A stretch of 64,000 nucleotides of DNA from a phage: the NCBI GenBank assembly GCA_020381345.1, contig GCA_020381345.1_3636.1. The stretch is one strand, 5' to 3'. The notes beneath the pieces are model-generated. The model did not search any database, was not told where the DNA came from, and worked only from the letters and a program-made list of their open reading frames with translations. Below are positions 24,859 to 49,832 of this stretch, piece after piece (within the stretch, counting starts at the first letter, position 1; every line of letters begins with the position of its first letter). The position numbers and the translations under genes were made by a program.

Positions 24859-24870
24859 CAGGAGGCAAAT

Positions 24871-24900: not shown

Positions 24901-24905
24901 TATAG

Positions 24906-25106: not shown

Positions 25107-25109
25107 TTC

Positions 25110-25517
25110 TCAGTCCTCGCATTTAACAAATTTTTCTACAGATCCACCAAGCACAGCTTGTTGTTTGATGGCACTTTCTTCATCATAGTGAATAGACTTA
25201 TGTTCCGTACCTCCAAACTTACCTGTGTGGAAGGTGTGCACCCAAATCTCTTTAGGAAGGGATTTATTCTCTTCTTCCACCAACTCCCACATTCCCCATA
25301 AGTGATCTGTGATATCTCTGATGAAATATCCCTCGCCTAGGTTTGTATTCACACTATAAGCTGATTCGTGATCTCCACAAATATAACGGAAGGCTGTGTA
25401 CTCTTTACCTGGTGTGAAGTGGGTATCCATTAGTATAGCTGTTAAAGAATAAGGGTCTCGAAAGCCCAAGAACTTTAGTTTAACAATTTCGACATTCACA
25501 CTTGCAAGATTCTCCAT
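25110..25517 (-). CDS. hypothetical protein
   Basis: 135 aa ORF in leftward operon. Confidence 0.4.
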   Translation of the reverse strand: MENLASVNVEIVKLKFLGFRDPYSLTAILMDTHFTPGKEYTAFRYICGDHESAYSVNTNLGEGYFIRDITDHLWGMWELVEEENKSLPKEIWVHTFHTGKFGGTEHKSIHYDEESAIKQQAVLGGSVEKFVKCED

Positions 25518-25680
25518 GGCAGTCTCCTCTGTTTGGTTGGTGAGATAATCCTATACAAATCTGTTGTTGGTGTCAAGATTAATTTTAAGAGATCTGAGAG
25601 GGTATTTTATTCAGGAAGGCAATCGCACAGGGTGGGGCAATTTATGAAGGCACAGGCCTCGTTTGAGGCCTTAAATTCTA

Positions 25681-26061
25681 TTATGACACTTTGACATAGC
25701 GCTCTGACAAAGCTGGGAAGCCAAAAGTAGTGCCTATACTACCATAGGCTATCCACCATTGAAGTTCATCGTGACACCATTTTCCGATCAGGAAGGTGCT
25801 GGGATAGCGGGTCAGTATTTTGGCATAAGCTTTAGGATCTGCATCTTCTGGGATAATGATGCTTGGAACATCTTTGTTATGACCACAGCAGCAGTTTAGC
25901 GTTTTCAAACCTGCTGCCCACAAACTCATGATAGGCTTAGCCATACACTTATCAAGGCACACACGTTTTTTGCCGTCACGGAGCTTTTTAGGCACATCAA
26001 CGATAACATTTTGATGCTTGGCACCTTTCACTTTCCAATTATAGGATTTACACTTGCACAT
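25681..26061 (-). CDS. Cys-rich hypothetical protein
   Basis: 126 aa; multiple Cys incl. NCCCGHN. Confidence 0.4.
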   Translation of the reverse strand: MCKCKSYNWKVKGAKHQNVIVDVPKKLRDGKKRVCLDKCMAKPIMSLWAAGLKTLNCCCGHNKDVPSIIIPEDADPKAYAKILTRYPSTFLIGKWCHDELQWWIAYGSIGTTFGFPALSERYVKVS

Positions 26062-26091
26062 TTAGTCAGTCTCCATCTAGAAAGCTATACT

Positions 26092-26298
26092 TTACTTAAA
26101 GTCTTTATCACCTGCCACGATTGCATGAATCCACTCATTGTGATGCTCAATAGCGGTGAGATGTAACATGATGTAGTGATCGTCATTGCCAAACATGATA
26201 TGATAGGCTTTGGCAGCATTTTGATATAACTTCCACATCAGGTAATGATATCTTCGCCTCATGGCCTTACTCCGGTTCAGGATCTGGGTAATCTTCAA
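26092..26298 (-). CDS. hypothetical protein
   Basis: 68 aa ORF in operon. Confidence 0.3.
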   Translation of the reverse strand: MKITQILNRSKAMRRRYHYLMWKLYQNAAKAYHIMFGNDDHYIMLHLTAIEHHNEWIHAIVAGDKDFK

Positions 26299-26737
26299 TA
26301 ATAAAGGGCCATCCGTTCCGCTTAGCCGCAGACTTATACTCGATCTCCTTCATTGCAAACTCTAACTGATTCTTAGCCGGAATACATGCCGGAGAATCAT
26401 CAATCCAGATATCTGGGTAGATATCAAACTGCGCCAGATAGGCTGCCTTCTGGACACCACCAGTATAAAACACACCAACATCGAGATCCTTACGCCAATA
26501 CTCAATGTCTACATTATCTTGAGTAATGAATCGGAAAGTCACAAGGTATACTGTCCACCCTTCCTTTTTCAAGTCCCTAATCAGGCGGGAGAAGATGAAA
26601 GGACTCGCATTAAATGTTCCATCAAAGTCAATGGCAATGATGTGTGTGCCGTGGCGTGTCTCATATGGATTGCTTGTGGTAAGATTGCTGTAGTTAAAAG
26701 GGACCTCTTCCCCGCAGTAGCTGTAGTCCATATTCAC
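26267..26737 (-). CDS. HAD-superfamily phosphatase-like protein
   Basis: Motif IIAIDFDGTF (DxDGT, HAD motif I) near N-terminus. Confidence 0.5.
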   Translation of the reverse strand: MNMDYSYCGEEVPFNYSNLTTSNPYETRHGTHIIAIDFDGTFNASPFIFSRLIRDLKKEGWTVYLVTFRFITQDNVDIEYWRKDLDVGVFYTGGVQKAAYLAQFDIYPDIWIDDSPACIPAKNQLEFAMKEIEYKSAAKRNGWPFIIEDYPDPEPE

Positions 26738-27009
26738 ACCTTCTCGTTGATAAATTTACGGGCGGTTTGGTGAGTTGTTTCTGCTGTCTTCAGAATGATA
26801 TTAATTTTATCGTCAAGATCATTCATCTCAGCAGTTAATTCAGGAATCTCTCCGGCATGCATGGTGAAATCATACATAGACATACCCAGGATCTCATTGA
26901 TTCGGCGGTTGCATTCTGCAGCACGCTGGTTCATTTTCCAAGCCAACACCAGAGCCTCTTGCGTAGCCTCCAGTGCAAAGTCTAATACGTCAGCTTCTTC
27001 TTTCGTCAT
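26734..27009 (-). CDS. hypothetical coiled-coil protein
   Basis: 91 aa ORF. Confidence 0.35.
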   Translation of the reverse strand: MTKEEADVLDFALEATQEALVLAWKMNQRAAECNRRINEILGMSMYDFTMHAGEIPELTAEMNDLDDKINIILKTAETTHQTARKFINEKV

Positions 27010-27064
27010 CTCAGTCTCTCTTGTTGTATTGTTAGTAGGTGCATGAACACCTTATATCTCACTT

Positions 27065-27631
27065 TTATTCAAACTGCAATAGCAAGTCCACCACCGCGCT
27101 AGGTCTGTCAACAAATTCCCCAGGTCCACATGCCCACAGAGGGTATCCGTCCACATACCGCCAAATCCAACCTGCAGTGTGGAGTTCGAGCAGGGCAGCA
27201 CCGTCCTTACTGTCAACCACTCTTTCCCACAGTGTTGGGCAGCGAAGCTTGAGAATCGGATCACCTCCCTTATACCCGTCCATGTAGATACCCATTGCAA
27301 AGTTCAGCATCATCTTTTTGTGCACTGATCTCTTACTGAGGGTGCTCATCACTTCCTCTTTGTGAATGTTTGTAAGCTTCTCTTTGGCTACCCGCAGATC
27401 GTTGCAACCATTGTTCAGCAGATCTTCCAGACACTTGATCCGAAGGTCGTGAATGTCTTTGTCGTGTACCGTTGGCACAGGGTCGTAGCGGTATAGCACT
27501 GTTGATACAAGGTTGCTCGGGTGTGGGTCTGACAGCAACCCATAACCCCAATACTCTTCTGTATCTGAAAGGACAAGACACCCAATGTCTCTGTCAAGCT
27601 TTCCTGTGTTGTAAGCCACATTGACCGCCAT
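27065..27631 (-). CDS. hypothetical protein
   Basis: 188 aa ORF. Confidence 0.4.
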   Translation of the reverse strand: MAVNVAYNTGKLDRDIGCLVLSDTEEYWGYGLLSDPHPSNLVSTVLYRYDPVPTVHDKDIHDLRIKCLEDLLNNGCNDLRVAKEKLTNIHKEEVMSTLSKRSVHKKMMLNFAMGIYMDGYKGGDPILKLRCPTLWERVVDSKDGAALLELHTAGWIWRYVDGYPLWACGPGEFVDRPSAVVDLLLQFE

Positions 27632-27633
27632 GA

Positions 27634-27879
27634 CTATAGCTCCACTAGCAAAGTGCTTTCAAAGTGCCGTTCATGCAGACCGTTGTAAGGGACCACTTCC
27701 ACAACGCCATCACGGACATATGGGGCCATCATGGTGGTATAATCTCCAAACGGGTTGGTATTGTCACTAACCACAACCACCTTCTGCCCTTCCTTGGCAG
27801 AGTGCCAAATAGATCTGCACTTCATCAGGTGTTCGAGAGCTCCAGGTAAAATTTTGTTACGTTCTTTACGGGTCTTCAT
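27634..27879 (-). CDS. hypothetical protein
   Basis: 81 aa ORF, coupled. Confidence 0.35.
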   Translation of the reverse strand: MKTRKERNKILPGALEHLMKCRSIWHSAKEGQKVVVVSDNTNPFGDYTTMMAPYVRDGVVEVVPYNGLHERHFESTLLVEL

Positions 27880-28325
27880 AACAGATATAGCTCCTTATGA
27901 AAGTGGTCTTTTAATTTCTCACTGAGAAACTTCTTGATACCTTCCTCTAAAGTGTTTTCGATGTAGTCCAGCTTAACTGCTTCGATGGACATATCATAGA
28001 TCGCCAGCTCTAAGCTGTCAAGTCCCATCATAGCATGAACCATAAGATTTTCATCTTCAGATACATTCAGGGGACTTCCTATAACATCTGTAGGTAGGAT
28101 AGTTTCCCAATTATTCTGGGGGGTAGTTCTCCCACCATCCACTTTACGGCGCAGTTCGAAGGTGTTCTTAGTGTAGAACACTTCATAAGAAACGATACGA
28201 CTATCGCTCTCATAATAAACGAAGTTCAGGTAGGAGCCTAGCCGCAGTCGGCAAACTTCTACCCCAAACCATTGTTTCTTATAAGAATTCAGGCTAATGC
28301 TGTCGCATTCACGCTTGCTCAACAC
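27876..28325 (-). CDS. hypothetical protein
   Basis: 149 aa ORF. Confidence 0.4.
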   Translation of the reverse strand: MLSKRECDSISLNSYKKQWFGVEVCRLRLGSYLNFVYYESDSRIVSYEVFYTKNTFELRRKVDGGRTTPQNNWETILPTDVIGSPLNVSEDENLMVHAMMGLDSLELAIYDMSIEAVKLDYIENTLEEGIKKFLSEKLKDHFHKELYLL

Positions 28326-28341
28326 GGCTATCTCCTTTTTG

Positions 28342-28575
28342 TTAATCTTCGTAAATCAAGATTTCTGCTTTAGGTTTTCGTGCTTTCAAGTCCAGCTCTA
28401 TCCAGTGCACCATAGCTGTTTCAAGAAAAACAGCTTGGATGCATCCGTCCTCAGCGTGCCCCACCAACATAACAAGATCTTCACCTTCGTCATCTGCATC
28501 ACGAACATACAGAATCTCTCCAGATTCAAAGTCTTTCACAACCTGATTGCTGGATAATTTACGAATTTTTGCCAT
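28342..28575 (-). CDS. small hypothetical protein (possible member of a 3-gene paralog set)
   Basis: 77 aa; similar size and composition to the next two genes. Confidence 0.35.
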   Translation of the reverse strand: MAKIRKLSSNQVVKDFESGEILYVRDADDEGEDLVMLVGHAEDGCIQAVFLETAMVHWIELDLKARKPKAEILIYED

Positions 28576-28576
28576 A

Positions 28577-28840
28577 TCAGAAACCCTCTAAAAAGCTCTT
28601 GTAGAAAATAATTTCAGTGTCCACACCTGTCACGATCTTATCGTTTCGGATCTCATCTGTGAGGTAGGTATCGAAACGTAGTACTTGTGTGGTATTGTTA
28701 CACATCCACTCAGCTGTGACCATTGCGAAAATCTTAGCATCTTCATTATCTGGTGTGAATGTTACCACCTCGCCGCACTTAAACTTTTCGATAGGTTGAG
28801 TGTTAGCTTTCGGTTCTGCGATAGTGATTTTCGTGGTCAT
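28577..28840 (-). CDS. small hypothetical protein
   Basis: 87 aa. Confidence 0.35.
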   Translation of the reverse strand: MTTKITIAEPKANTQPIEKFKCGEVVTFTPDNEDAKIFAMVTAEWMCNNTTQVLRFDTYLTDEIRNDKIVTGVDTEIIFYKSFLEGF

Positions 28841-29106
28841 TACTCTTCCTCCATAGTTTCACCAAATACTTCGATACGAGCATCGAGCTCGGTTGCTTTC
28901 AGCTCCCCAACAAAATCTTTTAGTTCTTTCTCGTCCAGATCGTAAGCCCACACACAAGAAGAACATGCAGATTTCACAATCAGCAGCGTAGATACACGGC
29001 CTGACTCTGTGATCATGCTCACAATGGTTCCAACAGGGAACGTGTTGATAGCTTTTTTAACTGGTCGTTCAGCTTTGATTACTACCTCTGTTGCCATAAA
29101 TAACAT
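28840..29106 (-). CDS. small hypothetical protein
   Basis: 88 aa. Confidence 0.35.
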   Translation of the reverse strand: MLFMATEVVIKAERPVKKAINTFPVGTIVSMITESGRVSTLLIVKSACSSCVWAYDLDEKELKDFVGELKATELDARIEVFGETMEEE

Positions 29107-29112
29107 CCTCTC

Positions 29113-30573
29113 TTACTTAGCGTACTCAATTAATTCCACAGTTTTCCCAAAGCTCGGGATATAATTTTTATTATACCCCTCGGTGAGAACCCATAAAGTA
29201 TCGTACTTTTTCCACTTGTTGTCAACAGCCTTTTGTTCAAAGTTATGCTCAAAGTATAGGTCTGTCAATACGATGACATCTTTTGCATTCGGTATGTTGG
29301 CATCCAGATACTCGAACACGCAAGCAGCTGTTGTGCCCCATGTTGAGTGGACCTCATAGTTGATCATCTCATCTATGTTACCGCGAGTGTATACTTTAAC
29401 CTCTCCAACCTCAGTTGACCAACAGAACATTGTAACCTTAAACTCTTTATACAGATTGCACAATCCGGTGATTTCATTGAACATTTTCTTTAAAGTTCTT
29501 TGAGAGATCGAGCCAGAAACGTCTAAAGCTACCACAATATCTATGGTGTTTTCCGGATTACGACCAGGAACAATAACGTGCTGGTTCTTGTTTATAGCCC
29601 CAACTTTTCGCATTGTGCTGGTCAAAGACCCAGATCGGCGACCAGGTTTTCTGTAGGTCAGTTCAGCCTTTCGTTTAGACAACATGCGTTGCTTGATGAT
29701 GTCTATATAATTGATTACAGGCTTACCTCTATTCTTGACAAACTCACGAACCGCCTCAGGGCAACGGCCTCCGGAAGCTTGCATTGCTGCCTCCAGCATG
29801 TCACCAGAGTCCTGCATGGCCTGATCTTTATCAGATTGACTGATTACAGGTTGTGGCTGATCATACCCCATAGCCTTTCCAAGATCATCACTGGTGCCAC
29901 CGTTACCACTCATGTGATCATCGGTTTGTCGCTTATCTCCTTGAGAGTTCTCACCTTTACCGCTCTTACTTTTACCGTTATTCTGATCTCTTTGCTTATC
30001 AAGAACTGCATAGACGTTCTCAGCAATCCATCCATGAAACTTCATGTCGCAGTAGCAGCTGGCTAAGAATCCAAAAGGCTTACCTTTCACGAACGTAGTG
30101 CTTTTCCCCTTCGGGAAGAAAACACAAGGGGGCTTGCTAAAGTCAACCACAAGACCTGTGTTGATAACGTGATCACAAGCAATATTGAACAGTTCCGGCT
30201 CAAAGCTTTTACCACGGACCAGGTGATCACAGATAATATGTCCCACCTCATGTGACAGAAGGAAGGCCACCTCTTTCACAGATTTTGGGGAATAGAAAAC
30301 TTCAGCCATCTCAAACTGCTTGTCAGTTAGAGAAGCCTTAAGAATAGCCTTGCGTTCATCAGCCAATCCCATAATGAACTCAGGACTGTAATAAATGCGT
30401 TTATGGTCGGTTGCCATGGTGGAGCACCATGTGTGGTTTTCTACGAACTGCAACCCTGACAGCAGTGTGCCATAAAACGGCAGCTTTTCAAGGAGATACA
30501 TACGTGCAGCCTGCAACATTCTCAGGGCATCATCTTTTTGTGAGGCAATGATTTCTGAACTTCTGCTATCCAT
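29113..30573 (-). CDS. metallopeptidase-like (HExxH) + von Willebrand factor A domain protein
   Basis: HEVGHIICDH zinc-protease-type motif in N-terminal half; VALDVSGSIS (DxSxS MIDAS) in C-terminal half; start placed at the second ATG (MDSRSSEI) which has a GGAG RBS; the track start at 30594 lies inside a hairpin. Confidence 0.6.
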   Translation of the reverse strand: MDSRSSEIIASQKDDALRMLQAARMYLLEKLPFYGTLLSGLQFVENHTWCSTMATDHKRIYYSPEFIMGLADERKAILKASLTDKQFEMAEVFYSPKSVKEVAFLLSHEVGHIICDHLVRGKSFEPELFNIACDHVINTGLVVDFSKPPCVFFPKGKSTTFVKGKPFGFLASCYCDMKFHGWIAENVYAVLDKQRDQNNGKSKSGKGENSQGDKRQTDDHMSGNGGTSDDLGKAMGYDQPQPVISQSDKDQAMQDSGDMLEAAMQASGGRCPEAVREFVKNRGKPVINYIDIIKQRMLSKRKAELTYRKPGRRSGSLTSTMRKVGAINKNQHVIVPGRNPENTIDIVVALDVSGSISQRTLKKMFNEITGLCNLYKEFKVTMFCWSTEVGEVKVYTRGNIDEMINYEVHSTWGTTAACVFEYLDANIPNAKDVIVLTDLYFEHNFEQKAVDNKWKKYDTLWVLTEGYNKNYIPSFGKTVELIEYAK

Positions 30574-30606
30574 TAAAACTCCAGAAGGGGCCATTGGCCC
30601 CTGTCA

Positions 30607-31650
30607 TTATTTAACGTGTTTGAAAATACCTGCCAACTCGGTCATTGTCATGCGGGTGGTCTTCATAAGATCTGTCATAGCTTTCTCCATAATTGGAGAT
30701 ACTACCATAAAGTTTCCTTTAGTGAAACCTTTATTCCAGTCGGTCACCAACAGCGGTTTAAGTCCAGCTCCGAGACGTTTACCAGTTAAAGCACAGCATT
30801 TGCGAATATACGAACTCTTAAATTGGCTGAACGATAGATCAACTTTCATACCTGCATCGTAGAACGTTTGACAATAGAAAGTGTAAGCCTTAGCAATCTC
30901 AACATCATCAGGTAGTGCAGGAACCTCTTCTGCAATCTCCTCTTCAACCACCTGAGGCTCTTTTTCCTCTTCAGAGGTCTGTTCTTCAATTTCTTCTGTC
31001 ACAGTCTCGTTTACGATGTCTGAAATGTGTTTGTTGGCTGCACGATCAGCCATGAAATTTTTAAAATCCTGCATCGGTGACATATCTTCTTCCTCTTCGT
31101 CAAATAGTGCTAGTTTATCTTCTTCTGACCCGTATTGCAAGATGAAATCTTCAAAAGTATATTCATCTTTTAATTCCTCCATACGCTCTTCGCTCAGGTG
31201 GAGCATCATCTGCTGGACAATTTTTCGATCAGTTTTGTCTTTAATCAGGATTGCAGTCTTTTTATCTACCAGACAGTCCTTCAGAGCGTTGCACCTCAAC
31301 CCTACCACACAACAATTATCAATTGCGTAAGGACCTTCATCATCTATCCGCTCCAGAGATGGGTAGAAAGGATTTCCCAGTCCGTTTTCATCTGTGTGCA
31401 TGTCGAAAGGTATAAGGGTATAGTCGCATACCCCCTCTCCTAAAAGTTTTTTACCAAATAGGAGGTATTCTTCCCACGACAGGTCGAACTCTATATCTCG
31501 TTTCCGTGCGTTATTCTGTTTGCGTCTATATTTTTTGAGCAAGCGCTCTAACTCTTCTGGTGTATAATATTTTTCAAGATTCATGAGTCGTCTCTCGTGC
31601 TCTGTAAGTGAAGAAATCGTATCAATTGTCTCAACAGATGTCAACATCAA
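30607..31650 (-). CDS. hypothetical protein with acidic linker
   Basis: 347 aa; first gene of leftward operon; glutamate-rich central segment. Confidence 0.45.
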   Translation of the reverse strand: MMLTSVETIDTISSLTEHERRLMNLEKYYTPEELERLLKKYRRKQNNARKRDIEFDLSWEEYLLFGKKLLGEGVCDYTLIPFDMHTDENGLGNPFYPSLERIDDEGPYAIDNCCVVGLRCNALKDCLVDKKTAILIKDKTDRKIVQQMMLHLSEERMEELKDEYTFEDFILQYGSEEDKLALFDEEEEDMSPMQDFKNFMADRAANKHISDIVNETVTEEIEEQTSEEEKEPQVVEEEIAEEVPALPDDVEIAKAYTFYCQTFYDAGMKVDLSFSQFKSSYIRKCCALTGKRLGAGLKPLLVTDWNKGFTKGNFMVVSPIMEKAMTDLMKTTRMTMTELAGIFKHVK

Positions 31651-33917: not shown

Positions 33918-34220
33918 GTGGCAAGGATGCCACTTAAAAGAGTAATAAACATGTTATACCAGAAACACGAACTTTGTGCAGAAAAAGAGTTAAATTTTGA
34001 CAAAGCTATCCACAGATATTGTTATGGAAAAACCGGAAGACAAGTAAGAAGATGCACTCCAGCATTCTTTCACCCCAGCAGGCGGCTAAGTCCTGAAGAG
34101 GCGACAGCAGAAAGGGTTGCATACAACTGGGAAGTTGTGTACGATATTGACAGATCCGATGTGACATCTGTTTTGGAAAACTTTGAAAACACTTACACAC
34201 AAGTAGAGGACTTTTACTAA
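33918..34220 (+). CDS. hypothetical protein
   Basis: 100 aa ORF, start uncertain (GTG 33918 or ATG 33927). Confidence 0.3.
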   Translation: MARMPLKRVINMLYQKHELCAEKELNFDKAIHRYCYGKTGRQVRRCTPAFFHPSRRLSPEEATAERVAYNWEVVYDIDRSDVTSVLENFENTYTQVEDFY

Positions 34221-35404
34221 TGTCAAGAAACGTATTTGAAAGTGGTCAAATCACTGTCCGTGAGTTGCCAGCTATCATTCAGTTTGCCCAGCGTCATAAC
34301 CGATCTGTCCTGATTTTAGGACCAATGGGTGTGGGAAAGAGTCAGGTGATGAAGCAGATCGCTGATAATATGTTCGGTGAGCGAGATGACAACCTGGTTG
34401 ACGTGCGGCTGTCAGATAAAGATCCTGCCGACTTATCTGGGCTACCTATCCCTGTAGAAGCGGATGGGACTACACGTACAGTGTTTGCAATCCCAGAATT
34501 TTGGCCTGCGGATCCTGACTGGAGCGGAATTGTCTTTCTGGATGAGCTCACTCATGCAGATAACTACCTGCAAAAGGTTGCAATGCAGATTATGCTCGAC
34601 CACAAGTGCGGCACCTATGCATTCCCTAAGGGCTCTGTTTTTGTAGCTGCAGGTAACCGTTCTACAGATGGTGCTGTTCTTTCGGCGCTCGAAGCCCCTC
34701 TGGCTAACCGCTTTATCATTGTAGAAGTTACAAGCAACGCAGAGGTGTTTATTGAGGACTACGCATTCCTTAATGGGGTGCACTCCTCTGTAATTGGATA
34801 TCTGAAAAGAGTTCCATCAGCTATTGATAATTATGAGGCCATGGCTGAGATTAATTGTCCATCTTTTGCCACACCGCGATCTTGGGTTGCTGCATCTGAT
34901 ATCTTGCACGATTTTGACAGCGGTATTATTTCTGACGCTATGGCCCGTGTTCTTCTGCAAGGTGCTATTGGTCACACTGCAGCGGTAGAGATCTGGACTT
35001 ACCACACCAAGAAACGCAATTTACCGGAAATCGGTCGGATTATGGCAGGTGGCTGCAAAGAATACGTAGGCCCTAAGCAGCCAGACATTTTGTGGATTCT
35101 TGGATCTGAAGGTTGTATCGCTATTCGTAATATGATGGAAAATGCAAGTATCTCAGACGAAGATCTTGTCAGCTGCGTGGCAAACTTCCTCGATTTCCTT
35201 TGGGAAAACTTCAAGGACGAGAACCGAGATTTTGTATTCTCAGTCTTTATGGCGATGATGAAACCTAATGCCTTAGGAAATGCCTTGCTTATCGGTAAAG
35301 GGCGTGACAAGATTGTTGCTCAGCTGATCAAAGCATACCCAAACCTGATGAAGATTGTAAAAGAGTTTGGTGAAGAGTTTAGCGCCATTTTGGCTAAAGC
35401 TTAA
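34220..35404 (+). CDS. MoxR/AAA_5-like AAA+ ATPase
   Basis: Walker A GPMGVGKS, Walker B IVFLDEL, sensor AAGNR. Confidence 0.65.
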   Translation: MSRNVFESGQITVRELPAIIQFAQRHNRSVLILGPMGVGKSQVMKQIADNMFGERDDNLVDVRLSDKDPADLSGLPIPVEADGTTRTVFAIPEFWPADPDWSGIVFLDELTHADNYLQKVAMQIMLDHKCGTYAFPKGSVFVAAGNRSTDGAVLSALEAPLANRFIIVEVTSNAEVFIEDYAFLNGVHSSVIGYLKRVPSAIDNYEAMAEINCPSFATPRSWVAASDILHDFDSGIISDAMARVLLQGAIGHTAAVEIWTYHTKKRNLPEIGRIMAGGCKEYVGPKQPDILWILGSEGCIAIRNMMENASISDEDLVSCVANFLDFLWENFKDENRDFVFSVFMAMMKPNALGNALLIGKGRDKIVAQLIKAYPNLMKIVKEFGEEFSAILAKA

Positions 35405-35806: not shown

Positions 35807-35832
35807 CCCCCGCTTCGGCGGGGATTTTCTAT
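35807..35832 (+). terminator. rho-independent terminator
   Basis: CCCCGC TTCG GCGGGG then ATTTTCTATTT. Confidence 0.6.
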
Positions 35833-35843
35833 TTGGAGTTATT

Positions 35844-36344
35844 GTGAAAATTAAGATCTTTGCTATTATTTTGAGCGCATTTTTATCGCTGCCTGTTGTT
35901 GCAGCACCAAAACAAAAAGTATATCATACTTGCAAGCCCTCAGATACTAAGGAAAACATTCTGGCATGCAATATCTACAGGGAGGCTAGAGGGGATGGCA
36001 CGATGGGTATGCTGGCATCCGGGTTTGCCACACTAAACAGGAAATCTCACCCCAAATACCCAGACACTATAAGAAAGATTGTCTACCAACCTAACCAGTT
36101 TTCGTGGACAAACCACGGCAAAACTTTTAAGGTGACAGAAAAAGATTCATGGGATCACGCTAAAAGTCTTGCAAAGATGCTTCTAAAGGTCTATAATAAC
36201 AACCATGTTGCATACATGGCTATGGACATAACAGGTGGAGCAACACACTACCATACAACCAAAGCACGACCGAAATGGGCAAAAAAGATGCAGAGGACAG
36301 CTCAATTCGGGAGTCATATCTACTACAAGGAGCGCAATAAATGA
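35844..36344 (+). CDS. secreted cell-wall hydrolase (SleB/Hydrolase_2-like), candidate lysin
   Basis: GTG start after GGAG; N-terminal signal peptide-like segment MKIKIFAIILSAFLSLPVVAAP; motif NIYREARGDG...ATLNR resembles the SleB-family signature. Confidence 0.5.
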   Translation: MKIKIFAIILSAFLSLPVVAAPKQKVYHTCKPSDTKENILACNIYREARGDGTMGMLASGFATLNRKSHPKYPDTIRKIVYQPNQFSWTNHGKTFKVTEKDSWDHAKSLAKMLLKVYNNNHVAYMAMDITGGATHYHTTKARPKWAKKMQRTAQFGSHIYYKERNK

Positions 36345-38323
36345 TTGTAAACAGTAATGAAACTAAAGCAGTACTAACCGGAAATATGGAGGTCACCAGG
36401 GGCTCAATTTCTCTGAACAAAGAGACTTTTGGGCTAATCATTAAAGGGATTTACGAAGATAAGGTGCTGGCAAGCTGCCGTGAACCAATCTTCAATGCTG
36501 TGGACTCCCATGTTGAGTCTGGACGGGGTGATGTACCGATCATCATTCACTCCCCTACAGACCTTGAACCATACTTCTTTGTGCAGGACGTTGGATTGGG
36601 CATGTCAGAAGAGATGGTCCGCAACACTTTCATGAACCTCGGGGAGTCAACCAAGCGCAACAGCAACGCTCTGGTAGGTAATAAAGGTGTTGGTTCAAAG
36701 GCTCCGTTCAGCATGGTGGACACTTTCGATGTTATCAGTGTGCACAATGGTGTTGAAAGCACATATCTATTGTTCTTGGATCAGGGTATCCCAAACGTTA
36801 CCAAGATCCGCGAGCGGAAGACTGAAGAGCACAACGGGGTAAAAGTTCAGTTTCATGTTAAGAAAGAGCATGTCCTGAAATATCGCACTGCTATTGCATC
36901 GTGCTTACGCTATGCGAAGTTTCCGTTCACCGTCACCGATCCCATGACTAGTAAGATGTTAGAAGGTGACAAGGTTGAGGCGCAGTATCGCTACGAGAAA
37001 GATGGTTGGAAAATGACTATCCTGAAAGGTTATACCAGCTCTGATGAGAGCCGTGTGGTGATGGGACACCAACCTTACCGCTCTAAGTTTCTGGAAACAT
37101 TGACCGATTACCCTGCAATCTGCGTGGAAATTCCTATTGGGGATTGCAATATTAACCCTGGGCGTGAATGGACCATAGAGGGCCATGACGACGGTGGATT
37201 CCAGGATCGCCTGGAGGCCTTTGTCAAAGAAGGTATACGTCTTCGCGGGGCAGAAGTTGTTGCAGAACTGGAGACGGCAAAAACCTCCGCAGAAGCACGT
37301 GAAATGATGAAGAATAGTGGAGTGTTCGGACACATCTTCGGCAAAAACTTTATGTGGAACCGTTGGGAAGAAACAGGGCTTGGCGACTTAGGCGATTGTG
37401 AAATTTTCGCTGGCGGCTTAAATAAAGGCCGCATAGGCTATGCCAGTTACGGAAAGTCGGAGTTCTTACGAGGCGTATACCTTGTATTTAACGACGGAGA
37501 CGGCAAATATAACCGAAATAAGTGTAACTACTTAAGCGAGATCACCGGACGCAACGTTTTCTATTGCCGTAACACGGATCTGGTGGAAGAGTTTAAAGAA
37601 GCGGCACACCACCCGTTCTTTGCAGATACGGTCAAATTGTTATCAGAACTCCCTCGCCGACCTGTCAAGAAAGGTGAAACAAAAACTCGTTATGAGCCAG
37701 GCTATTGGGTTAAAAAACTTGAGAAGGATGGTTACTTCCGCCGTGAGCGTATTACTAAGGCAGAGTTCCGGAAGATTAAACACTGCATCCCTTATGAGGG
37801 TGATATCCAACGTGGAAGTTGTTGGCTGGGGCAGATGAGTAACATCTACCAGCAAGATTATGACCGTGTACGTGCGGCACTTCAGATTCCTGAAGGTGAA
37901 GATCTGTATCTGGTATCTGAATCTCGTCTGCTTTGGACTGATCCTGATTGCCAGTATGTTACAGAGAAGAATGTGGAGCACCTGTTGAAAGAGGATGCTT
38001 GGAAATTCTTACTGACCCGTGCAGCAAATGAGACTTCTTATGACAGCCTGTATAGACAATTAGGGAAAATTATTCCCATGCAAGATTTTGGAAATTATCG
38101 GCCACATTTCCACAAGTGGGAAGGTAACACCACGTGGAAGCACAGTGAGCTAAATCATCGTGCCAAAATCTTAATCGCCAACCGAGTTAAATGCGGGAAG
38201 GCCTATATTGCAAGATTGGAAAAGAAATACCCGCTTTTGAAGCATGTAGGCTTGAAATATTGGGACACTCCTGCTATGATTGAATACCGTGAACTGATCG
38301 ATACAAAGAATAACATCAAATAA
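36341..38323 (+). CDS. Hsp90/MORC-like GHKL ATPase domain protein (660 aa)
   Basis: Bergerat-fold motifs in order: N-box EPIFNAVD (ExxxNAxD), G1 DVGLGM, G2 GNKGVGSKAPF (cf. Hsp90 GQFGVGFYSAF); AAGGAG RBS. Confidence 0.6.
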   Translation: MIVNSNETKAVLTGNMEVTRGSISLNKETFGLIIKGIYEDKVLASCREPIFNAVDSHVESGRGDVPIIIHSPTDLEPYFFVQDVGLGMSEEMVRNTFMNLGESTKRNSNALVGNKGVGSKAPFSMVDTFDVISVHNGVESTYLLFLDQGIPNVTKIRERKTEEHNGVKVQFHVKKEHVLKYRTAIASCLRYAKFPFTVTDPMTSKMLEGDKVEAQYRYEKDGWKMTILKGYTSSDESRVVMGHQPYRSKFLETLTDYPAICVEIPIGDCNINPGREWTIEGHDDGGFQDRLEAFVKEGIRLRGAEVVAELETAKTSAEAREMMKNSGVFGHIFGKNFMWNRWEETGLGDLGDCEIFAGGLNKGRIGYASYGKSEFLRGVYLVFNDGDGKYNRNKCNYLSEITGRNVFYCRNTDLVEEFKEAAHHPFFADTVKLLSELPRRPVKKGETKTRYEPGYWVKKLEKDGYFRRERITKAEFRKIKHCIPYEGDIQRGSCWLGQMSNIYQQDYDRVRAALQIPEGEDLYLVSESRLLWTDPDCQYVTEKNVEHLLKEDAWKFLLTRAANETSYDSLYRQLGKIIPMQDFGNYRPHFHKWEGNTTWKHSELNHRAKILIANRVKCGKAYIARLEKKYPLLKHVGLKYWDTPAMIEYRELIDTKNNIK

Positions 38324-38333
38324 GGAGACCAAG

Positions 38334-39539
38334 ATGATTTTCATCTACGAACATTTCAAAACTCGTAAAGAAGCACGCGACCGCCGTGCAGAACTTGAGA
38401 AGAAGGGTTTCACATGTGCCATTGAGAAAGGTGACACAACCTGGACACTGGCAGTGGGTGCCCCAGAATTGTTCGATCCTGACCGTGACAGCGTCTGCTA
38501 CACCCGTGAGGATTTTGAAACCCGTGAAGAGGCACGTCTATTTCGATATGGGCTGGAAGATAACGGTAAGTACGCCATGATCTTAGACTTAGGCGAAGGT
38601 TCCGTTAAACGTTGGGGCGTGATATACCCACTGTGTGTTGTTCACGGTGTGGGGTTCACCGGGGTGGCAATCAAGTCAGAAGAACCTTTAGTAGAAGTCA
38701 AAGACCCGGTGCTGGAGGTGGTGAGCAGTGTGTCTCAGCAACAGACTCGAAGCATCGAGCCTTTAGTAGTTATTTGTGGGGAACTCCTCCAGATCACCTG
38801 CAACGAAGGCATTTTTGAAATTCGCCGCAGCGAAAGTGAGGAAGTTTACCAGAAAGTCTTCGACCATATCTCTGTTCAGGAATATGATGAGGCAATTGGT
38901 GAAATCCTTGTCTGGCTGGAACGCAAGAATGAGTTCACCACACTTGCAGACAACCTGATCATGAAAGATGGTAAGCTCTACTACTACGGTGTAGAGATGC
39001 GATCCACCATTGCAAAGAAAATTGAGAAAGACTATGCAGACGGAACACTGGATGACCGCTATGTGAAATTCCTCGTTCGCCTGCTACGCAATCCTTCTGC
39101 AAAATCTGTAAACATGCTCTACGATTTTATGCAGGCCAACGATATCCAGATTGCAGAAGATGGTCGAATCATTTGCTACAAAGGGGTTCAGTTTAACGGC
39201 AGCAAGTGGGTGGATTGGCACAGTGGTAAAGTTCCACAATACCAGGGTGCTTTTGTATCCATGCCTCGTAACTTTGTAGAGGATGATCCTGAAGCTGCGT
39301 GCTCCTATGGCTTACACTGCGCCAGCAAGGAGTATGCAAAGAGCTACGGCACTGTAATGACTGTCATGGTTGACCCTGCAGATGTGGTTAGTGTGCCATA
39401 CCAACACAATAGCGCTAAGTGCCGTGCATGCCGCTATGAGATTGTGGTAGCTCCGGAAGCACGCAAGGACGGAGACCCGATTGAATACGTGGTTGACCGA
39501 GACGGTAACACTATCGACATTCTTTACGAGGAGGCGTAA
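38334..39539 (+). CDS. hypothetical protein, likely partner of the GHKL ATPase
   Basis: AAGGAGA RBS; 401 aa; start 10 nt after upstream stop. Confidence 0.45.
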   Translation: MIFIYEHFKTRKEARDRRAELEKKGFTCAIEKGDTTWTLAVGAPELFDPDRDSVCYTREDFETREEARLFRYGLEDNGKYAMILDLGEGSVKRWGVIYPLCVVHGVGFTGVAIKSEEPLVEVKDPVLEVVSSVSQQQTRSIEPLVVICGELLQITCNEGIFEIRRSESEEVYQKVFDHISVQEYDEAIGEILVWLERKNEFTTLADNLIMKDGKLYYYGVEMRSTIAKKIEKDYADGTLDDRYVKFLVRLLRNPSAKSVNMLYDFMQANDIQIAEDGRIICYKGVQFNGSKWVDWHSGKVPQYQGAFVSMPRNFVEDDPEAACSYGLHCASKEYAKSYGTVMTVMVDPADVVSVPYQHNSAKCRACRYEIVVAPEARKDGDPIEYVVDRDGNTIDILYEEA

Positions 39540-40909
39540 TGGAAAAAGGGCAGTATGATGTAGGCACAGATGCTGCCCTCGTTGCAATCATGAGCGGTGA
39601 GAATGTCTTCGTTTCAGGACCCGCAGGTTGTGGGAAGACGTACCTCATCAACATGATCCAGTCAATGTATGGAGACTCTTGCATAACGGTTGCCCCGACA
39701 GGGGTAGCCGCTTTAAACGTTAATGGAGCAACAGCACACCGAACCTTCGATCTTGCAGCAGGTGTGAGCATGGAGTCAGACTGGACCGCAATAAGGGCAA
39801 AAACAGCAAAGCCTTTGAAAAGCAAGGCATTTACCATCCTAATTATCGATGAAATCTCTATGATCCGTGCTGATAAGTTTATAGAGATGGATAGGAAACT
39901 CCGCTTCCTTCGAAAAAATGACAAACCTTTCGGAGGCATACAGGTCATATTGTTTGGCGATTTTTACCAGGCACCTCCTGTTGTCTCTTCTATGGAGAAG
40001 GAAGCCTACTTCAACTTCTACCATACGGACCTGTGTTGCTACACCGAATCTTGGAAAGAACTTGACCTCCACAACATAGCTCTAATAGATCAGTTCCGAC
40101 AGGAGTCTATTCGATTTGCCACAATGCTCAACTGTGTTCGTGAGGGTCGTCGCATAAAAGAGGTTGTAGCAGAACTTAATGCTCGCTGTTACAAAGGCGG
40201 TGTACCAACAGACGCTCTCACAATTTGCGCCACCAACAAACAAGCAGAGGAAGTGAACAGAAGGTTCTATGATGCCATCAACGCCCCAGAGAAGGTATAC
40301 ACTGGTGAAATGAAGGGTAAGTTTCCCTCCACCCTGCCAGTTGAGCAGGAGATGAAGTTGAAAATTGGCATGAAAGTTATGATAACCGCCAACGATGTTG
40401 ACCCGACGCACAAAGTACCTTATTATGTTAACGGAACACGTGCCACAATTGTTAAATTTAAGAACAAGGCAGTGGTGGTAGAGCTTGAAGATGGAACACA
40501 GGTTGACATAGAGCAGAGGTTGTGGGAGAATAACGAGTATAAGCCCTCTCAGAGATACAACATTGCAGAAAGGAAGATGGAGAAGTTTATAGAGAGGGTA
40601 GTGATTGGGTCATACAAGCAACTTCCTCTGAAATCTGGGTACGCCGTAACATCTCATAAAAGTCAAGGACTTACTCTAGATTGTTACAACCTAGACCTTG
40701 GAAAGAACGGAGCTTTCTCTCCTGGGATGACGTATGTCGCTTTGAGTAGAGTTAAGACAATACAGGGAATAAACTTGTTGCGTCCACTAAGAGAAGTTGA
40801 CATTATTGTTGACCCGCGAGTCGTAGAGTTTTACAATACAACATTCCCTGACTTAGACAAAATTGTCAGGAAAGATTTTGAAACCAGAGCAGAAGAGGGG
40901 GACGTATGA
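39539..40909 (+). CDS. dda: Dda/RecD/Pif1-like superfamily 1 DNA helicase
   Basis: Walker A GPAGCGKT, Walker B ILIIDEISM, C-terminal motif AVTSHKSQGLTLD, motif VALSRV. Confidence 0.75.
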   Translation: MEKGQYDVGTDAALVAIMSGENVFVSGPAGCGKTYLINMIQSMYGDSCITVAPTGVAALNVNGATAHRTFDLAAGVSMESDWTAIRAKTAKPLKSKAFTILIIDEISMIRADKFIEMDRKLRFLRKNDKPFGGIQVILFGDFYQAPPVVSSMEKEAYFNFYHTDLCCYTESWKELDLHNIALIDQFRQESIRFATMLNCVREGRRIKEVVAELNARCYKGGVPTDALTICATNKQAEEVNRRFYDAINAPEKVYTGEMKGKFPSTLPVEQEMKLKIGMKVMITANDVDPTHKVPYYVNGTRATIVKFKNKAVVVELEDGTQVDIEQRLWENNEYKPSQRYNIAERKMEKFIERVVIGSYKQLPLKSGYAVTSHKSQGLTLDCYNLDLGKNGAFSPGMTYVALSRVKTIQGINLLRPLREVDIIVDPRVVEFYNTTFPDLDKIVRKDFETRAEEGDV

Positions 40910-41307: not shown

Positions 41308-42633
41308 ATGAGTAAAACCAAATTAGAACTTACCTGGATAGGTAAAAACGAGCGCAAAAAGTTAGAGCCGCACATTTTGTTAGAAGATTCTAGCAAATCT
41401 TACCACAGCCAGAAAGTGACCGAAAACGATATTTTTGATAATAAACTGATTTTTGGAGATAACTTATTAGCATTGAAGGCGCTAGAGCAAGAGTATGCAG
41501 GCAAAGTGAAGTGTGTTTACATAGACCCGCCATTCAATACCGGGAGGGCTTTTGAGCACTACGATGATAGCCTGGAGCATTCCATTTGGCTGGGCTTAAT
41601 GAGGGATAGGTTAGAAATAATTCGTAATCTTCTAAGTGATGATGGGGTAATATTCGTTCACTTAGATGATTGCGAAATGGCGTATTTAAAAGTTTTGATG
41701 GACGAGATTTTTGGTCGTGCAAATCAGTTAAATACCATATCGATGACCACAAATTCCCCTTCGGGATTTAAGGCAACAGGAGCCACAGTTTTCTCCACAG
41801 CAAACTTTTTGCTTGTATATGCAAAAGATCGCACCCAGAAACCGCTTAACAAAATCTATATACCTAAAGGGTATGATACAGGATATAACAAATACCTATT
41901 AAACCCGGATGACCATTATAAAAATTGGACGTGGTGCGGTATTGCCGATGCGTTTGCAAAGGCCAATGGCTATAAAGATGCAAAAGAAGCCAAGAAAAAA
42001 CTGCCTGATACATTCGATGATGAATTAGCACAATTCGCAATTGATAATGCAGAACGTGTATTTCAATCTGTTGCAATTGGCGGTGGTGCTAAAATAAAGA
42101 GAAAAGAAACTATCGAGAAGTCAAAGAAAGATAGGGATAAGGTTTATGTACATCCAAATGAAGATGTTGAAGGATTTTATATCGCAAATGGTAGGCAAAT
42201 GGTCTTTTACTCCAACAGGCTTTTGGAAATTGACGGTGATATGCAACCTGCGGAACTAATAACTGATGTTTGGACAGACATTAGTTGGAATGGAATAGCA
42301 AATGAAGGCGGCGTTAGTTTCAAAAATGGGAAAAAACCAGAAGCGCTTTTGAAGCGAATTTTCGAAATGTGTACGCGAGAAGGCGATTTGGTATTGGATT
42401 CATTCGGTGGTTCGGGAACTACTGCTGCTGTAGCTCACAAGATGAAAAGACGTTGGATCTCCATCGAGATCGGTGATCATTGCCATACCCATATTATTCC
42501 GCGCTTGGAAAAAGTGATCGATGGGGAAGATCAAGGTGGTATTTCTAAGTCTGTAAACTGGCAAGGTGGTGGTGGCTTCCGTTATTACAAACTTGCCCCG
42601 ACCTTAATTGCGAAAGATAAGTCTGATCAATAA
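41308..42633 (+). CDS. DNA N6-adenine (or N4-cytosine) methyltransferase, beta class
   Basis: Catalytic motif IDPPFNT precedes the AdoMet motif DSFGGSGTT (beta-class order). Confidence 0.7.
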   Translation: MSKTKLELTWIGKNERKKLEPHILLEDSSKSYHSQKVTENDIFDNKLIFGDNLLALKALEQEYAGKVKCVYIDPPFNTGRAFEHYDDSLEHSIWLGLMRDRLEIIRNLLSDDGVIFVHLDDCEMAYLKVLMDEIFGRANQLNTISMTTNSPSGFKATGATVFSTANFLLVYAKDRTQKPLNKIYIPKGYDTGYNKYLLNPDDHYKNWTWCGIADAFAKANGYKDAKEAKKKLPDTFDDELAQFAIDNAERVFQSVAIGGGAKIKRKETIEKSKKDRDKVYVHPNEDVEGFYIANGRQMVFYSNRLLEIDGDMQPAELITDVWTDISWNGIANEGGVSFKNGKKPEALLKRIFEMCTREGDLVLDSFGGSGTTAAVAHKMKRRWISIEIGDHCHTHIIPRLEKVIDGEDQGGISKSVNWQGGGGFRYYKLAPTLIAKDKSDQ

Positions 42634-46778: not shown

Positions 46779-49202
46779 ATGAGCATGTGGTCGTTCGATT
46801 TTGAGTCATCCGGTTTACTGGAAGACCCAGATCTTTATTATCACTGCGGTCTGTTTAAAGAGCTGAATAAGAACCGTTTTATGCTGTTCCTTCCTCTAAA
46901 TGACCGCACACACTACTCCGAGGAGGATATAGAAAAGGCTAAGAACTTCATTCTGGCAAAGAAAACTCTTTATAAAGATTTTGAAGTTCGCATAGCAGAT
47001 TTTTCGGAGTTGGAAGGTTGGCTTACAGGCAATTCCGACTGGTCACCAACAGCTTTGAACTGCCATAACTGCTACAGTTATGACTTTATGCTGATGGAAA
47101 GATTATCCGGTATTCATTTTGACATGTTCCGTGATCCTAAATGCATGGGGACTATCAACGACCACCAGGTTAACCTGTTTGATACGTTGGCGATGAGTCG
47201 AATCTTGTGGCCTGATCGCCCTTTACCAAAAGGTTGTCCGGACTCTGTATTCAACCCGGTCACTAAGAAAATGCAGCCTGTTGGTCCTCACGGCCTTATG
47301 GCATGGGGCTATGCTCTTGGTAACCAGAAAGTTCAAATTGATGACTGGCGCGATCTTCCGTTGTGGAAGTATGTGGATCGTGTATTTGAGGACGTTATCA
47401 TCCAGGAGCTGCTCTGGAAAGAACTGGTAGCGGAATCAAAAGGTGTATTCTACGGCAAGTCTGACATGCAGAACTTTATGTACGATCCTGCCAAAGAGAA
47501 GCCAAAAGGGTTCAAGAAGATCACCTGGAAGAACGCATTACGCCGAGGCATGCTGCAGCACTTCCTGATGGAGCTGCAGGCCCGTCAGGGTGTGTATTTC
47601 GACATAGACGGGGCTATTGCTTTACGTGACCGCTGTGATGCGTGGATGAAAGAGATCGCTGATCGTGTTGAACCTCAACTTCCTTTAAAAGAGTTATCAA
47701 TATCTCAGCGGCCTAAATTCCCTGAAAAGCCGTTCAACCAAGATGGGACAATTTCCAATAATGGCTGGAAATGGTTAAAAGATAAGCTTGGCTATCCTGT
47801 AGATATGAGCGCTTTAGAGTTCAAAGCCCCGCCTAAGCGAGCATTTACCTCCACAGGAGATGTCAGTAAGATGGGGATAAAATGGTGTGAAGAGATGGGC
47901 TGCAAAGACCCCGATAAGATGGCTGATTTCTTGAGAGGCTATATTAAGGGCACCTCAACACCACAACCTTTACCTAAAGAGCTAATGGATCAGGCAATAA
48001 GTGATCTACAGCAGAAGCGAATGCCGGACTGCAAGATACCTATGAAAATCAGCAATCAGGACGACATTAAGCGATACCTGATCAGTGCTGGTTGGCTTCC
48101 GACAATGTGGAGAACTAAGGATGTAACTAAAGACAGCAAGAAGAAAGCTCTACCTGATGCAGATGTTGATGCACGAGTATATGCATATATGGACGAGCTT
48201 TTAGAGTCAGAGTATTGTGACCTGATTATCAACTTCTGGAACAAAACTGATGCTAAGTTCCAGACAACCGTGCACAAGTTCCGAAGCTTTCCTAACTCCG
48301 AAAGGATTAAAAAGGAAGTATTCGGGAAAATACGTAGAAAAGCCAGGGCACTTATTACTTCTCCGCAACTGAAAGATACGTTTGGACACCTATGTCCGAA
48401 TCTTGAAAAATTGAACGGAGAGATGGCTAAAGATATCGTCTTGTGGTTATCATTGCGAAACCGCAGATCGGTCCTTGATCCAATCAAGGAGGATAAGGTT
48501 GATACTGGTCTTCTTAATCACCCACGCTTGAAGATTGACCATAAGCTTCCTGCTAAAAGTTCTGGGCTAACAAACACTTCCAGACAGAAACACAGTATTT
48601 GTGCAAACATGCCTAAACCATCTCCTAAAGTGGTTATGGGTAAAGAGATGCGTAGTCTATGGGGTGTTCCTCCGGGATACTTTGAGATCGGTATTGACGG
48701 GTCCAACTTAGAGCAGCTTATCGGAGCTTGGGGTGCCTTTGAGTTCGACAACGGCTTGTATTATGATGTTGTAAGTAACGGGGACGCACACCAAAACAAT
48801 GCTGAGGCATATACAAAAGTAGCAGGTAGAGAGGTGTCTCGTAACGACGGTAAACCTATCACGTATGGGGTTATGTACGGGGCACAAAAAGATAAAGTTG
48901 CAGACATGCTGGATATCTCTCCAGAGTTGGGACAAAGGGTAATCGATGCACTCTGGGATGCCAACCCTGGTCTTAAGGGGCGCAAAGAGGATCTGGAGAA
49001 ATTCTGGGAAGCAACAGGTAAGAAGTTTATCTACTCTTTTGATGGTCATGCTATCTGGACCCGATCTAAACACTCTTTACTTAATGCATACCAACAGAAT
49101 GGTGGTGCATCGCTGTGTGACTTAGTTGGGATACTCATGCACCACCAAATGGTGAAGCGTGGGTGGTACGATGAAGGTGTTCGTCGTATTATTTATTACC
49201 AT
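46779..49202 (+). CDS. DNA polymerase, family A (T7 gp5-like), exon 1
   Basis: Exo I FDFESSG, Exo II-like NCHNCYSYD, motif A EIGIDGSNLE, motif B KPITYGVMYGAQ; ORF stops 1 codon after the His of motif C (..IIYYH K stop). Confidence 0.7.
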
Positions 49203-49478
49203 AAATAACATTGTGGCTTCATAGAGTAATCTATGTCGAATAACCTCTTTAACTGCGGGAAGCCTAAACCTTATGGCAAGGTAATCCGCAACGAAGCGCT
49301 CAAAAGAGCGAACGCTCAGAGGCCATTCCGAAAGGAAGTAGACCAGCAAGTGCGGTCGAAATGGGAGGATTCCTGTGGTTGCTTATCATAGGAATATGAG
49401 ATGGTCCGATCCTACGTGAAAACGTATGGCTATGCACGTAATGGTGCGGGGTAGCTTAACGACCTACCTGAACTATTG
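49203..49478 (+). ncRNA. group I self-splicing intron (no ORF) interrupting DNA polymerase motif C
   Basis: P-like AACTGCGGGAAG (49251), Q-like AATCCGCAAC (49283), R-like GCTCAGAGGCC (49314) in canonical order; P/Q complementary; upstream exon ends in T, intron ends in G; three in-frame stops; joining exons restores ..YYHDEYQLQV (H-D-E motif C). Confidence 0.6.
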
Positions 49479-49832
49479 GATGAGTACCAACTTCAGGTCC
49501 CTGACACACCTAAGTATAAGACTGTGTACACCTTCGACACAATTGAAGAACTGGAAGCATTTAAGGCAGAGCAGGAAGCCAAACTTCATGTGTTCGACGG
49601 TCATAAGTACAAAAAGGCACGCAAGGATGAAAACGGAAACGAGGTGGTTGACAGAGACGGAAACACGGTGTACGATCCTATCCTGAACGATGACGGAAAG
49701 CTTGAACTTATCTGGAGCCCTGTGGGCGAGATGGTGGTACATTGCTTCTGGCAAGCTTCTAAAATGATGGGAGTCCCGTTCCAGATCACAGGTGAATACT
49801 TGTGTGGTCGTAACTGGGGTGATTGTCACTAA
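49479..49832 (+). CDS. DNA polymerase, family A, exon 2 (C-terminal segment)
   Basis: Same frame as exon 1; begins GAT GAG (D-E of HDE); C-terminus ..CGRNWGDCH resembles T7 pol C-terminus ..GPNWAICH. Confidence 0.6.
   Translation, partial: DEYQLQVPDTPKYKTVYTFDTIEELEAFKAEQEAKLHVFDGHKYKKARKDENGNEVVDRDGNTVYDPILNDDGKLELIWSPVGEMVVHCFWQASKMMGVPFQITGEYLCGRNWGDCH

Follow-up and report, generated by a model that had tools for sequence, protein, structure and literature searches.

The rII gene pair of the window

We analysed a 64,000-nucleotide stretch of phage DNA, referred to throughout as the window (NCBI GenBank assembly GCA_020381345.1, contig GCA_020381345.1_3636.1), and within it a pair of adjacent genes for which a first-pass annotation, made from the letters alone, had proposed an undescribed two-gene system. 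The two open reading frames are present as that annotation had described them, and we found that the proteins they encode, of 660 and 401 residues, match the phage proteins rIIA and rIIB. Judged by the sequence comparisons given below, the window is that of a Vequintavirus (an rV5-like coliphage) and the pair is its rII locus. The rII locus is the gene pair behind fine-structure genetics and the triplet code. In the window it consists of the following two genes.

36341–38323, plus strand: rIIA gene, 660 amino acids, ATG start, 75.8 kDa, isoelectric point 8.1
38334–39539, plus strand: rIIB gene, 401 amino acids, ATG start, 45.8 kDa, isoelectric point 4.9

The 660-residue protein matches PHROG 612 ('RIIA lysis inhibitor') with E = 1.5e-124, its residues 1–658 falling on profile positions 1–724 of 725. 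Its 401-residue partner, which had been taken for an unrecognised protein, is rIIB: it matches PHROG 609 ('RIIB lysis inhibitor') with E = 1.3e-61. For comparison with T4 we took the rIIA and rIIB genes from AF158101 and compared their products directly by BLASTP. T4 rIIA is 28% identical to the 660-residue protein over residues 1–190 (E = 3e-21), the C-terminal halves of the two proteins not being alignable by this method, and T4 rIIB is 37% identical to the 401-residue protein over residues 172–371 (E = 4e-39). The T4 proteins (AAD42647 and AAD42649, 'protector from prophage-induced early lysis') thus belong to the same families, and their genes stand in the same order on one strand. The two loci differ in the length of rIIA (660 residues in the window and 725 in T4), in that of rIIB (401 and 312 residues) and in the flanking genes, which are a cell-wall hydrolase and a Dda-like helicase in the window and gene 60/rIIA.1 and denB in T4.

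The choice of family collection matters for a pair of this kind. Scans with NCBIfam and PADLOC assign no family to either protein, and a scan with a local copy of Pfam gives only the generic HATPase_c_3 for rIIA and nothing significant for rIIB. The family PF26926, which is absent from that copy, is precomputed on all rIIB homologues. We advise caution in annotation, as Pfam, NCBIfam and PADLOC give almost nothing for rIIA and rIIB, whereas PHROGs identifies both at once.

The locus is carried at 90–99.8% nucleotide identity by 121 phage records, nearly all of them from Vequintavirus (rV5-like) coliphages. Many of these records label the pair rIIA/rIIB, 'rIIA/rIIB lysis inhibitor' or 'membrane integrity protector', and in many Vequintavirus records the numbering begins at rIIA, as in the T4 convention. 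In phages rV5, navn and EdH4 the gene lengths, the gene order and the flanking genes are identical to those of the window, with 1–11 substitutions per protein and none of these in the catalytic motifs. The rIIA ('RIIA protector') and rIIB of navn are 99.1% and 99.75% identical in amino-acid sequence to the window proteins, and the 'rIIB protector' of rV5 is 99.8% identical to the window rIIB; the EdH4 record itself calls both genes 'hypothetical protein'. Among the records related to the window there are also 16 unannotated 'Campylobacter phage' entries (MG065644–MG065682; host Campylobacter jejuni) that are 97–99.8% identical to it, one of them being its best match. Such entries suggest an error in naming or in host assignment, or contaminated phage stocks.

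The co-occurrence of the two genes in other phages, which the first-pass annotation had put forward as a check on their partnership, is borne out on a large scale. Genes like rIIA are present in 2,643 and genes like rIIB in 2,878 of 50,697 phage records, and the counts of the two per host genus are near-identical (117 and 117 for Pseudomonas, 93 and 93 for Streptomyces, 81 and 81 for Aeromonas, 73 and 73 for Acinetobacter). Such agreement from genus to genus is the signature expected of an obligate pair.

Some sequences join parts of the two genes. P0072, a protein of 330 residues from a 38.7-kb metagenomic contig, is a natural in-frame fusion in which ~65 residues from the start of rIIA are followed by the ~260 residues at the end of rIIB. 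It is an rII deletion of the kind of Benzer's r1589, found in an environmental Vequintavirus-like phage and represented by seven member sequences. In the PHROG 609 profile (1,055 positions), positions 29–186 match the ATPase domain of rIIA and positions 806–1045 match rIIB, which suggests that the family contains fused rIIA–rIIB proteins. A further chimera, P0005, in which TPR repeats are combined with rIIB, comes from a contig of 3.3 kb and is probably an artefact of assembly.

The ATP site of rIIA and the two parts of rIIB

The Bergerat-fold motifs that had been read in the 660-residue protein are confirmed in its translation and stand in the order reported, which is that of the GHKL ATPases (N-box E-x3-N-x2-D at residues 48–55, G1 box D-x-G-x-G at 83–87 and G2 box G-x-x-G-x-G at 113–118). 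An arginine-containing loop follows further downstream. The four elements, with their counterparts in Hsp90 proteins, are listed here.

36479–36505, plus strand: N-box REPIFNAVD, residues 47–55; E48 corresponds to HtpG E34 (the catalytic Glu), N52 to N38 (the Mg site) and D55 to D41
36587–36604, plus strand: G1 box DVGLGM, residues 83–88; D83 pairs with the adenine-binding Asp of HtpG (ISDNGVGM; D80)
36677–36709, plus strand: G2 box GNKGVGSKAPF, residues 113–123, at the end of the ATP lid; aligns with HtpG GQFGVGFYSAF
37136–37168, plus strand: loop IGDCNINPGRE, residues 266–276; aligns with the Hsp90 middle-domain catalytic loop SSDLPLNVSRE

The Pfam domain HATPase_c_3 covers residues 50–147 of rIIA, with 34.9 bits against a gathering score of 25 (E = 1.8e-8). 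In an alignment of 24 rIIA homologues the residues E48, N52, D55, D83, G85, G87, G113, G116 and G118 are all invariant; the ATP-lid residues G113, G116 and G118, whose presence had been left for an alignment to decide, are among them. The lid segment at residues 102–114, just before the G2 box, has low model confidence, which fits a mobile lid. T4 rIIA shares the N-box, G1 and G2 motifs and the S/G-R-E loop with the window rIIA, its N-box counterpart reading RELITNMID and its Arg loop GSLDIAPSRE, and the Arg loop is found in all 14 diverse rIIA homologues that we examined. R275 and E276, both invariant, pair with HtpG R336 and E337 in the hmmsearch and in the hhalign alignments, R336 being equivalent to R380 of the yeast protein and part of the Hsp90 motif N-[IV]-S-R-E. 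Many tblastn matches in other phages stop exactly at residue 276 of rIIA.

We built a profile from the 24 rIIA sequences and searched it against all PDB sequences and against single E. coli proteins. The best PDB match obtained with hmmsearch is E. coli HtpG (E = 4.4e-9), in an alignment that begins at the G1 box and extends to residue 381 of HtpG, and the top 60 matches are all Hsp90-family chains; MORC2/3, SMCHD1, GyrB/ParE/topoisomerase II and MutL do not occur among these best 60. With hhalign, the rIIA profile is aligned to HtpG with 97.4% probability (E = 1.1e-11) over 293 columns, residues 28–314 of rIIA corresponding to residues 15–375 of HtpG. The same profile gives 47% probability (E = 1.9e-4) over 124 columns with GyrB and 23% (E = 8.7e-4) over 104 columns with MutL, in both cases within the ATP-binding core only. 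The first-pass annotation had placed the motif spacing closest to Hsp90 and MORC rather than to GyrB or MutL; the nearness to Hsp90 stands.

The AlphaFold2 model of rIIA (pLDDT 83.9), compared with the PDB by Foldseek, has Hsp90 structures in all of its top 50 matches (E = 4e-17 to 6e-14). The global TM-scores of these matches are only 0.3–0.46, and by rigid-body structure alone rIIA is not cleanly separable from other GHKL-plus-transducer ATPases. We rejected an assignment of rIIA to the topoisomerases or to MutL, since the GyrB and MutL profile matches are confined to the ATP-binding core. Neither the profile search nor the structure search yielded such an assignment, which the annotation had named as the outcome that would speak against its proposal; Hsp90 is best in both.

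We found no sequence similarity to Hsp90 in rIIA beyond residue ~325 and no transmembrane segment in the protein (maximum hydropathy 0.83). CW, coiled-coil, Toprim and endonuclease domains were not found in rIIA either, unlike in its MORC, topoisomerase and MutL relatives, and no solved structure was found for rIIA or rIIB. Taken together, the alignments indicate that residues ~28–314 of rIIA are homologous to the N-terminal ATPase domain and the start of the middle domain of HtpG, and that rIIA keeps every Hsp90 catalytic residue, namely E48, N52, D83, the Gly-rich lid and R275. As far as sequence can tell, rIIA is a distant homologue of Hsp90 but does not strictly belong to the Hsp90 family, its identity to E. 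coli HtpG, TRAP1 and GRP94 being ~12–17%. Unlike Hsp90, rIIA has a partner of its own in rIIB, and it is not known to act as a chaperone. Iyer et al. (2021) go no further in describing rIIA than a GHKL ATPase at the N-terminus and a variable domain at the C-terminus, and our literature search found no paper tying rIIA to Hsp90 or HtpG.

The partner protein rIIB consists of a conserved core and an N-terminal module that is specific to its lineage.

38340–38642, plus strand: rIIB N-terminal module, two tandem beta-alpha-beta-beta repeats (residues 3–42 and 53–103), as predicted by the model
38847–39449, plus strand: conserved rIIB core, residues 172–372, common to T4 rIIB

The core is made of a helical part (residues 169–268) followed by a beta-rich part (residues 279–372) and contains the invariant motifs NPS-K, CS-GLH and VDP-DVVSVP; in the rIIB alignment, T4 rIIB included, 44 columns are invariant. 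Each of the N-terminal repeats begins F-x-T-R-x-E-A-R, and a disordered linker (residues 101–141) comes after them. The N-terminal ~140 residues are lineage-specific, as only 130 of the 2,878 records with an rIIB-like gene cover at least 80% of the protein. Searches of the PDB sequences with rIIB gave no match, whether with the single sequence or with a profile. A SPOR domain was considered for the N-terminal repeats and rejected, as it stays below threshold in sequence and in structure.

At the equivalent N-terminal place T4 rIIB has a resolvase-type helix-turn-helix (HTH_7, 23.6 bits), whereas the window rIIB has no Pfam match to a helix-turn-helix and its model has the two beta-alpha-beta-beta repeats and the disordered linker there. 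The helix-turn-helix is not a family-wide feature of rIIB and can be replaced by an unrelated module. Since it is absent from the window rIIB, DNA binding through a helix-turn-helix cannot be the conserved activity of rIIB. The literature calls rIIB a transcription factor, presumably because of the helix-turn-helix of the T4 protein.

One stretch at the end of the second repeat, residues 95–113 (38616–38672, GVIYPLCVVHGVGFTGVAI), is marginally hydrophobic (Kyte-Doolittle 1.71). It is not conserved among rIIB homologues and could perhaps make some contribution to the membrane association reported for the rII proteins.

Protection from RexAB and its possible mechanism

The rIIA and rIIB proteins counteract the abortive infection system RexAB of phage lambda, which depolarises the membrane of the infected cell. 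T4 rIIA and rIIB are membrane-associated, and RexB is a polytopic inner-membrane protein. RIIA or RIIB was knocked down in phages T4, MM02, EdH4, SUSP1 and N4 (Adler et al. 2025; PMC11879866); the knock-downs had no defect without Rex and plated less efficiently on RexAB+ cells. Of these phages EdH4, which was tested by CRISPRi-ART, is a Vequintavirus. Its RIIA differs from the window rIIA at 11 of 660 positions (98.3% identity) and its RIIB from the window rIIB at 11 of 401 (97.3% identity), and since these near-identical proteins were tested, the function of the locus described here has in effect been tested as well. In T4, insertions in rIIA and rIIB were depleted only with RexAB in the HIDEN-SEQ study (2025 preprint), and the T4 pair falls in the same published phenotype class, being needed only on RexAB+ hosts. 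By analogy with these phages, rIIA and rIIB of the window would be dispensable on ordinary hosts and both needed on RexAB+ cells. We regard the identity of the window pair as rIIA/rIIB, together with its anti-Rex role, as highly probable.

Three other explanations have to be weighed against this one. The original proposal of an undescribed two-gene phage system, be it a new chaperone, a DNA-remodelling or an anti-defence module, draws on the facts that PADLOC and NCBIfam assign no family, that Pfam gives only the generic HATPase_c_3 and that there are no solved structures. It does not survive the PHROG RIIA/RIIB and T4 BLASTP matches, whose E-values of 1e-39 to 1e-124 exclude an artefact, nor the facts that near-identical phages are already annotated and that a knock-down phenotype has been published for the EdH4 homologues. 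The pair is rIIA/rIIB, already known and already annotated in rV5-like phages, and no new system; we give the proposal almost no chance of being right. The names of the PHROG families suggest another explanation, in which rIIA and rIIB are lysis inhibitors in the literal sense, as part of the holin–antiholin timing, and their position beside the hydrolase reflects a role in lysis. Both PHROG families are filed under 'lysis', a secreted SleB/CwlJ-type hydrolase lies directly upstream and is translationally coupled to rIIA, and rII mutants were reportedly isolated by Benzer in 1955 as rapid-lysis plaques. This explanation is nevertheless improbable. The knock-downs in five phages, a Vequintavirus among them, show no infection defect without Rex, and transposon insertions in T4 rII are neutral without RexAB. 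In 1998 Paddison and colleagues reportedly attributed the r phenotype seen with rII mutants to prophage-dependent exclusion rather than to lost lysis inhibition. The rII genes of T4 have no lysis genes beside them, and the adjacency to the hydrolase is thus specific to a lineage.

It has also to be considered that rIIA is a DNA-manipulating GHKL ATPase of the type II topoisomerase or MutL kind that acts with the neighbouring replication genes, rIIB being its DNA-binding or transcription partner. Neither a Toprim domain nor a GyrB C-terminal or MutL endonuclease domain was found in rIIA, and its profile resembles GyrB and MutL only weakly and within no more than the ATP-binding core, whereas HtpG aligns over 293 columns. 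For its invariant phosphate-sensing residue rIIA has an Arg, placed in an S/G-R-E loop of the Hsp90 type, whereas the transducers of GyrB and MutL have a Lys. With the window rIIB being devoid of a helix-turn-helix as well, we consider such a DNA enzyme very unlikely.

For rIIA/rIIB as protectors from RexAB, the ATP site of rIIA suggests how the pair might work. rIIA would act as a clamp of the Hsp90/GHL type, catalytically active, driven by ATP and probably forming dimers. On closure of its N-terminal and middle domains, the ATP site would be completed by the Arg loop. The obligate partner of rIIA would be rIIB, as an adaptor or as a substrate. Together they would hold or remodel a target, such that RexAB-type effectors are not triggered or the membrane potential is not collapsed. 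We put forward this specific Hsp90-like clamp mechanism only tentatively. It is also conceivable, if rather less than likely, that rIIA is an unappreciated viral branch of the Hsp90 lineage, a clamp with rIIB as adaptor or client that neutralises membrane-depolarising effectors such as RexAB. We are similarly hesitant about the idea that goes with it, that the N-terminal ATPase and the Arg loop have been kept in all rIIA proteins from T4 to the N4-like and Streptomyces phages.

Several observations weigh against this interpretation or limit its reach. None of the 24 rIIA homologues matches the Pfam HSP90 family, and the NCBIfam HSP90 model (PRK14083) scores 18 bits for rIIA against a cut-off of 455. 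Binding and hydrolysis of ATP by rIIA are predicted only from the conserved catalytic residues. RIIB of phage T6 is toxic alone, and bacterial CARD-gasdermin systems sense it as their trigger, so that RIIB may act partly on its own. Sensitivity to RexAB was measured in EdH4 and would hold for the window phage by near-identity. Recent papers still call rII 'poorly understood'.

If rIIA is indeed a branch of the Hsp90 lineage, the 70-year-old rII question would turn into a definite problem of ATPase and clamp action, for which the point mutants to make are obvious. The Hsp90-type catalytic loop, conserved throughout the rIIA family, offers a testable handle on the rII mechanism, and the full set of Hsp90-type residues in rIIA together with the replaceable helix-turn-helix of rIIB narrows the hypotheses on rII activity.

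The gene run and other features of the window

The rII pair lies within a run of closely packed genes on the plus strand, of which the following parts surround or separate rIIA and rIIB.

35808–35833 (hairpin 35808–35823), plus strand: terminator-like GC hairpin CCCCGCTTCGGCGGGG followed by a T-run; six G-C pairs and a loop of 4
35844–36344, plus strand: SleB/CwlJ-type cell-wall hydrolase, upstream neighbour of rIIA (Pfam Hydrolase_2, E = 4.7e-19; PHROG 938, endolysin)
38324–38333, plus strand: spacer between rIIA and rIIB, GGAGACCAAG, 10 nucleotides, with the Shine-Dalgarno sequence GGAG inside
39539–40909, plus strand: Dda/PIF1-like superfamily 1 (SF1) helicase, downstream neighbour of rIIB (Pfam PIF1, E = 1.1e-32; PHROG 325, E = 6.4e-112)

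The flanking genes are those that the first-pass annotation had named, a lysin-like gene and a Dda helicase. The hydrolase has a hydrophobic, signal-like segment at its N-terminus (residues 3–21, hydropathy 2.29). Its stop codon overlaps the start of rIIA (ATGA), and the ATG of the helicase overlaps the stop of rIIB (TAATG). The tight coupling of rIIA and rIIB that had been pointed out is real, the two being separated by the 10-nucleotide spacer with its GGAG, but it is not special to the pair, since the hydrolase, rIIA, rIIB and helicase genes are all packed in this manner.

The hairpin and its T-run sit directly 5' of the hydrolase gene, and the EdH4 record has a terminator annotated at the same place. 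The fold of the hairpin (−15.5 kcal/mol, z = −1.6) is not strongly exceptional. A promoter scan found 23 sites against 20.2 expected from shuffled sequence, which is no better than shuffled. The hairpin is the probable 5' boundary of a transcription unit made up of the hydrolase, rIIA, rIIB and helicase genes, and rIIA and rIIB are thus probably in one transcription unit.

Two genes upstream of rIIA, the window encodes a MoxR-like AAA+ ATPase (34220–35404, plus strand; PHROG 1297, E = 2e-110). In the Vequintavirinae phage Bas54, a MoxR ATPase (bas54_0063) is reported to be required against a predicted defence system, 'DS-28' (HIDEN-SEQ, 2025 preprint). By analogy, this stretch may be a cluster of counter-defence genes. 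Downstream of the helicase lies a type III-like N6/N4 DNA methyltransferase (41308–42633, plus strand; PADLOC MTase_III, E = 7e-205; Pfam N6_N4_Mtase, E = 1.5e-42). It has no adjoining restriction subunit and is present in most Vequintavirus records, but it is absent at this position in navn. This orphan methyltransferase is probably an anti-restriction self-methylase.

Further along the window, a group I intron of 236 nucleotides at 49193–49428 on the plus strand splits the DNA polymerase gene. It matches Rfam RF00028 over the full length of the model (64.7 bits, E = 4e-14). The open reading frames on its two sides, at 46779–49208 (809 amino acids) and 49476–49832 (118 amino acids), cover positions 1–185 and 185–295 of PHROG 8888. 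At only 236 nucleotides, the intron leaves no room for a homing endonuclease gene. The window is otherwise a plus-strand one, apart from the interval 24000–31650, where the GC skew is negative and a block of genes lies on the minus strand; among them, open reading frames of 493 and 347 amino acids correspond to the metallopeptidase and the 'anti-sigma factor' of navn.

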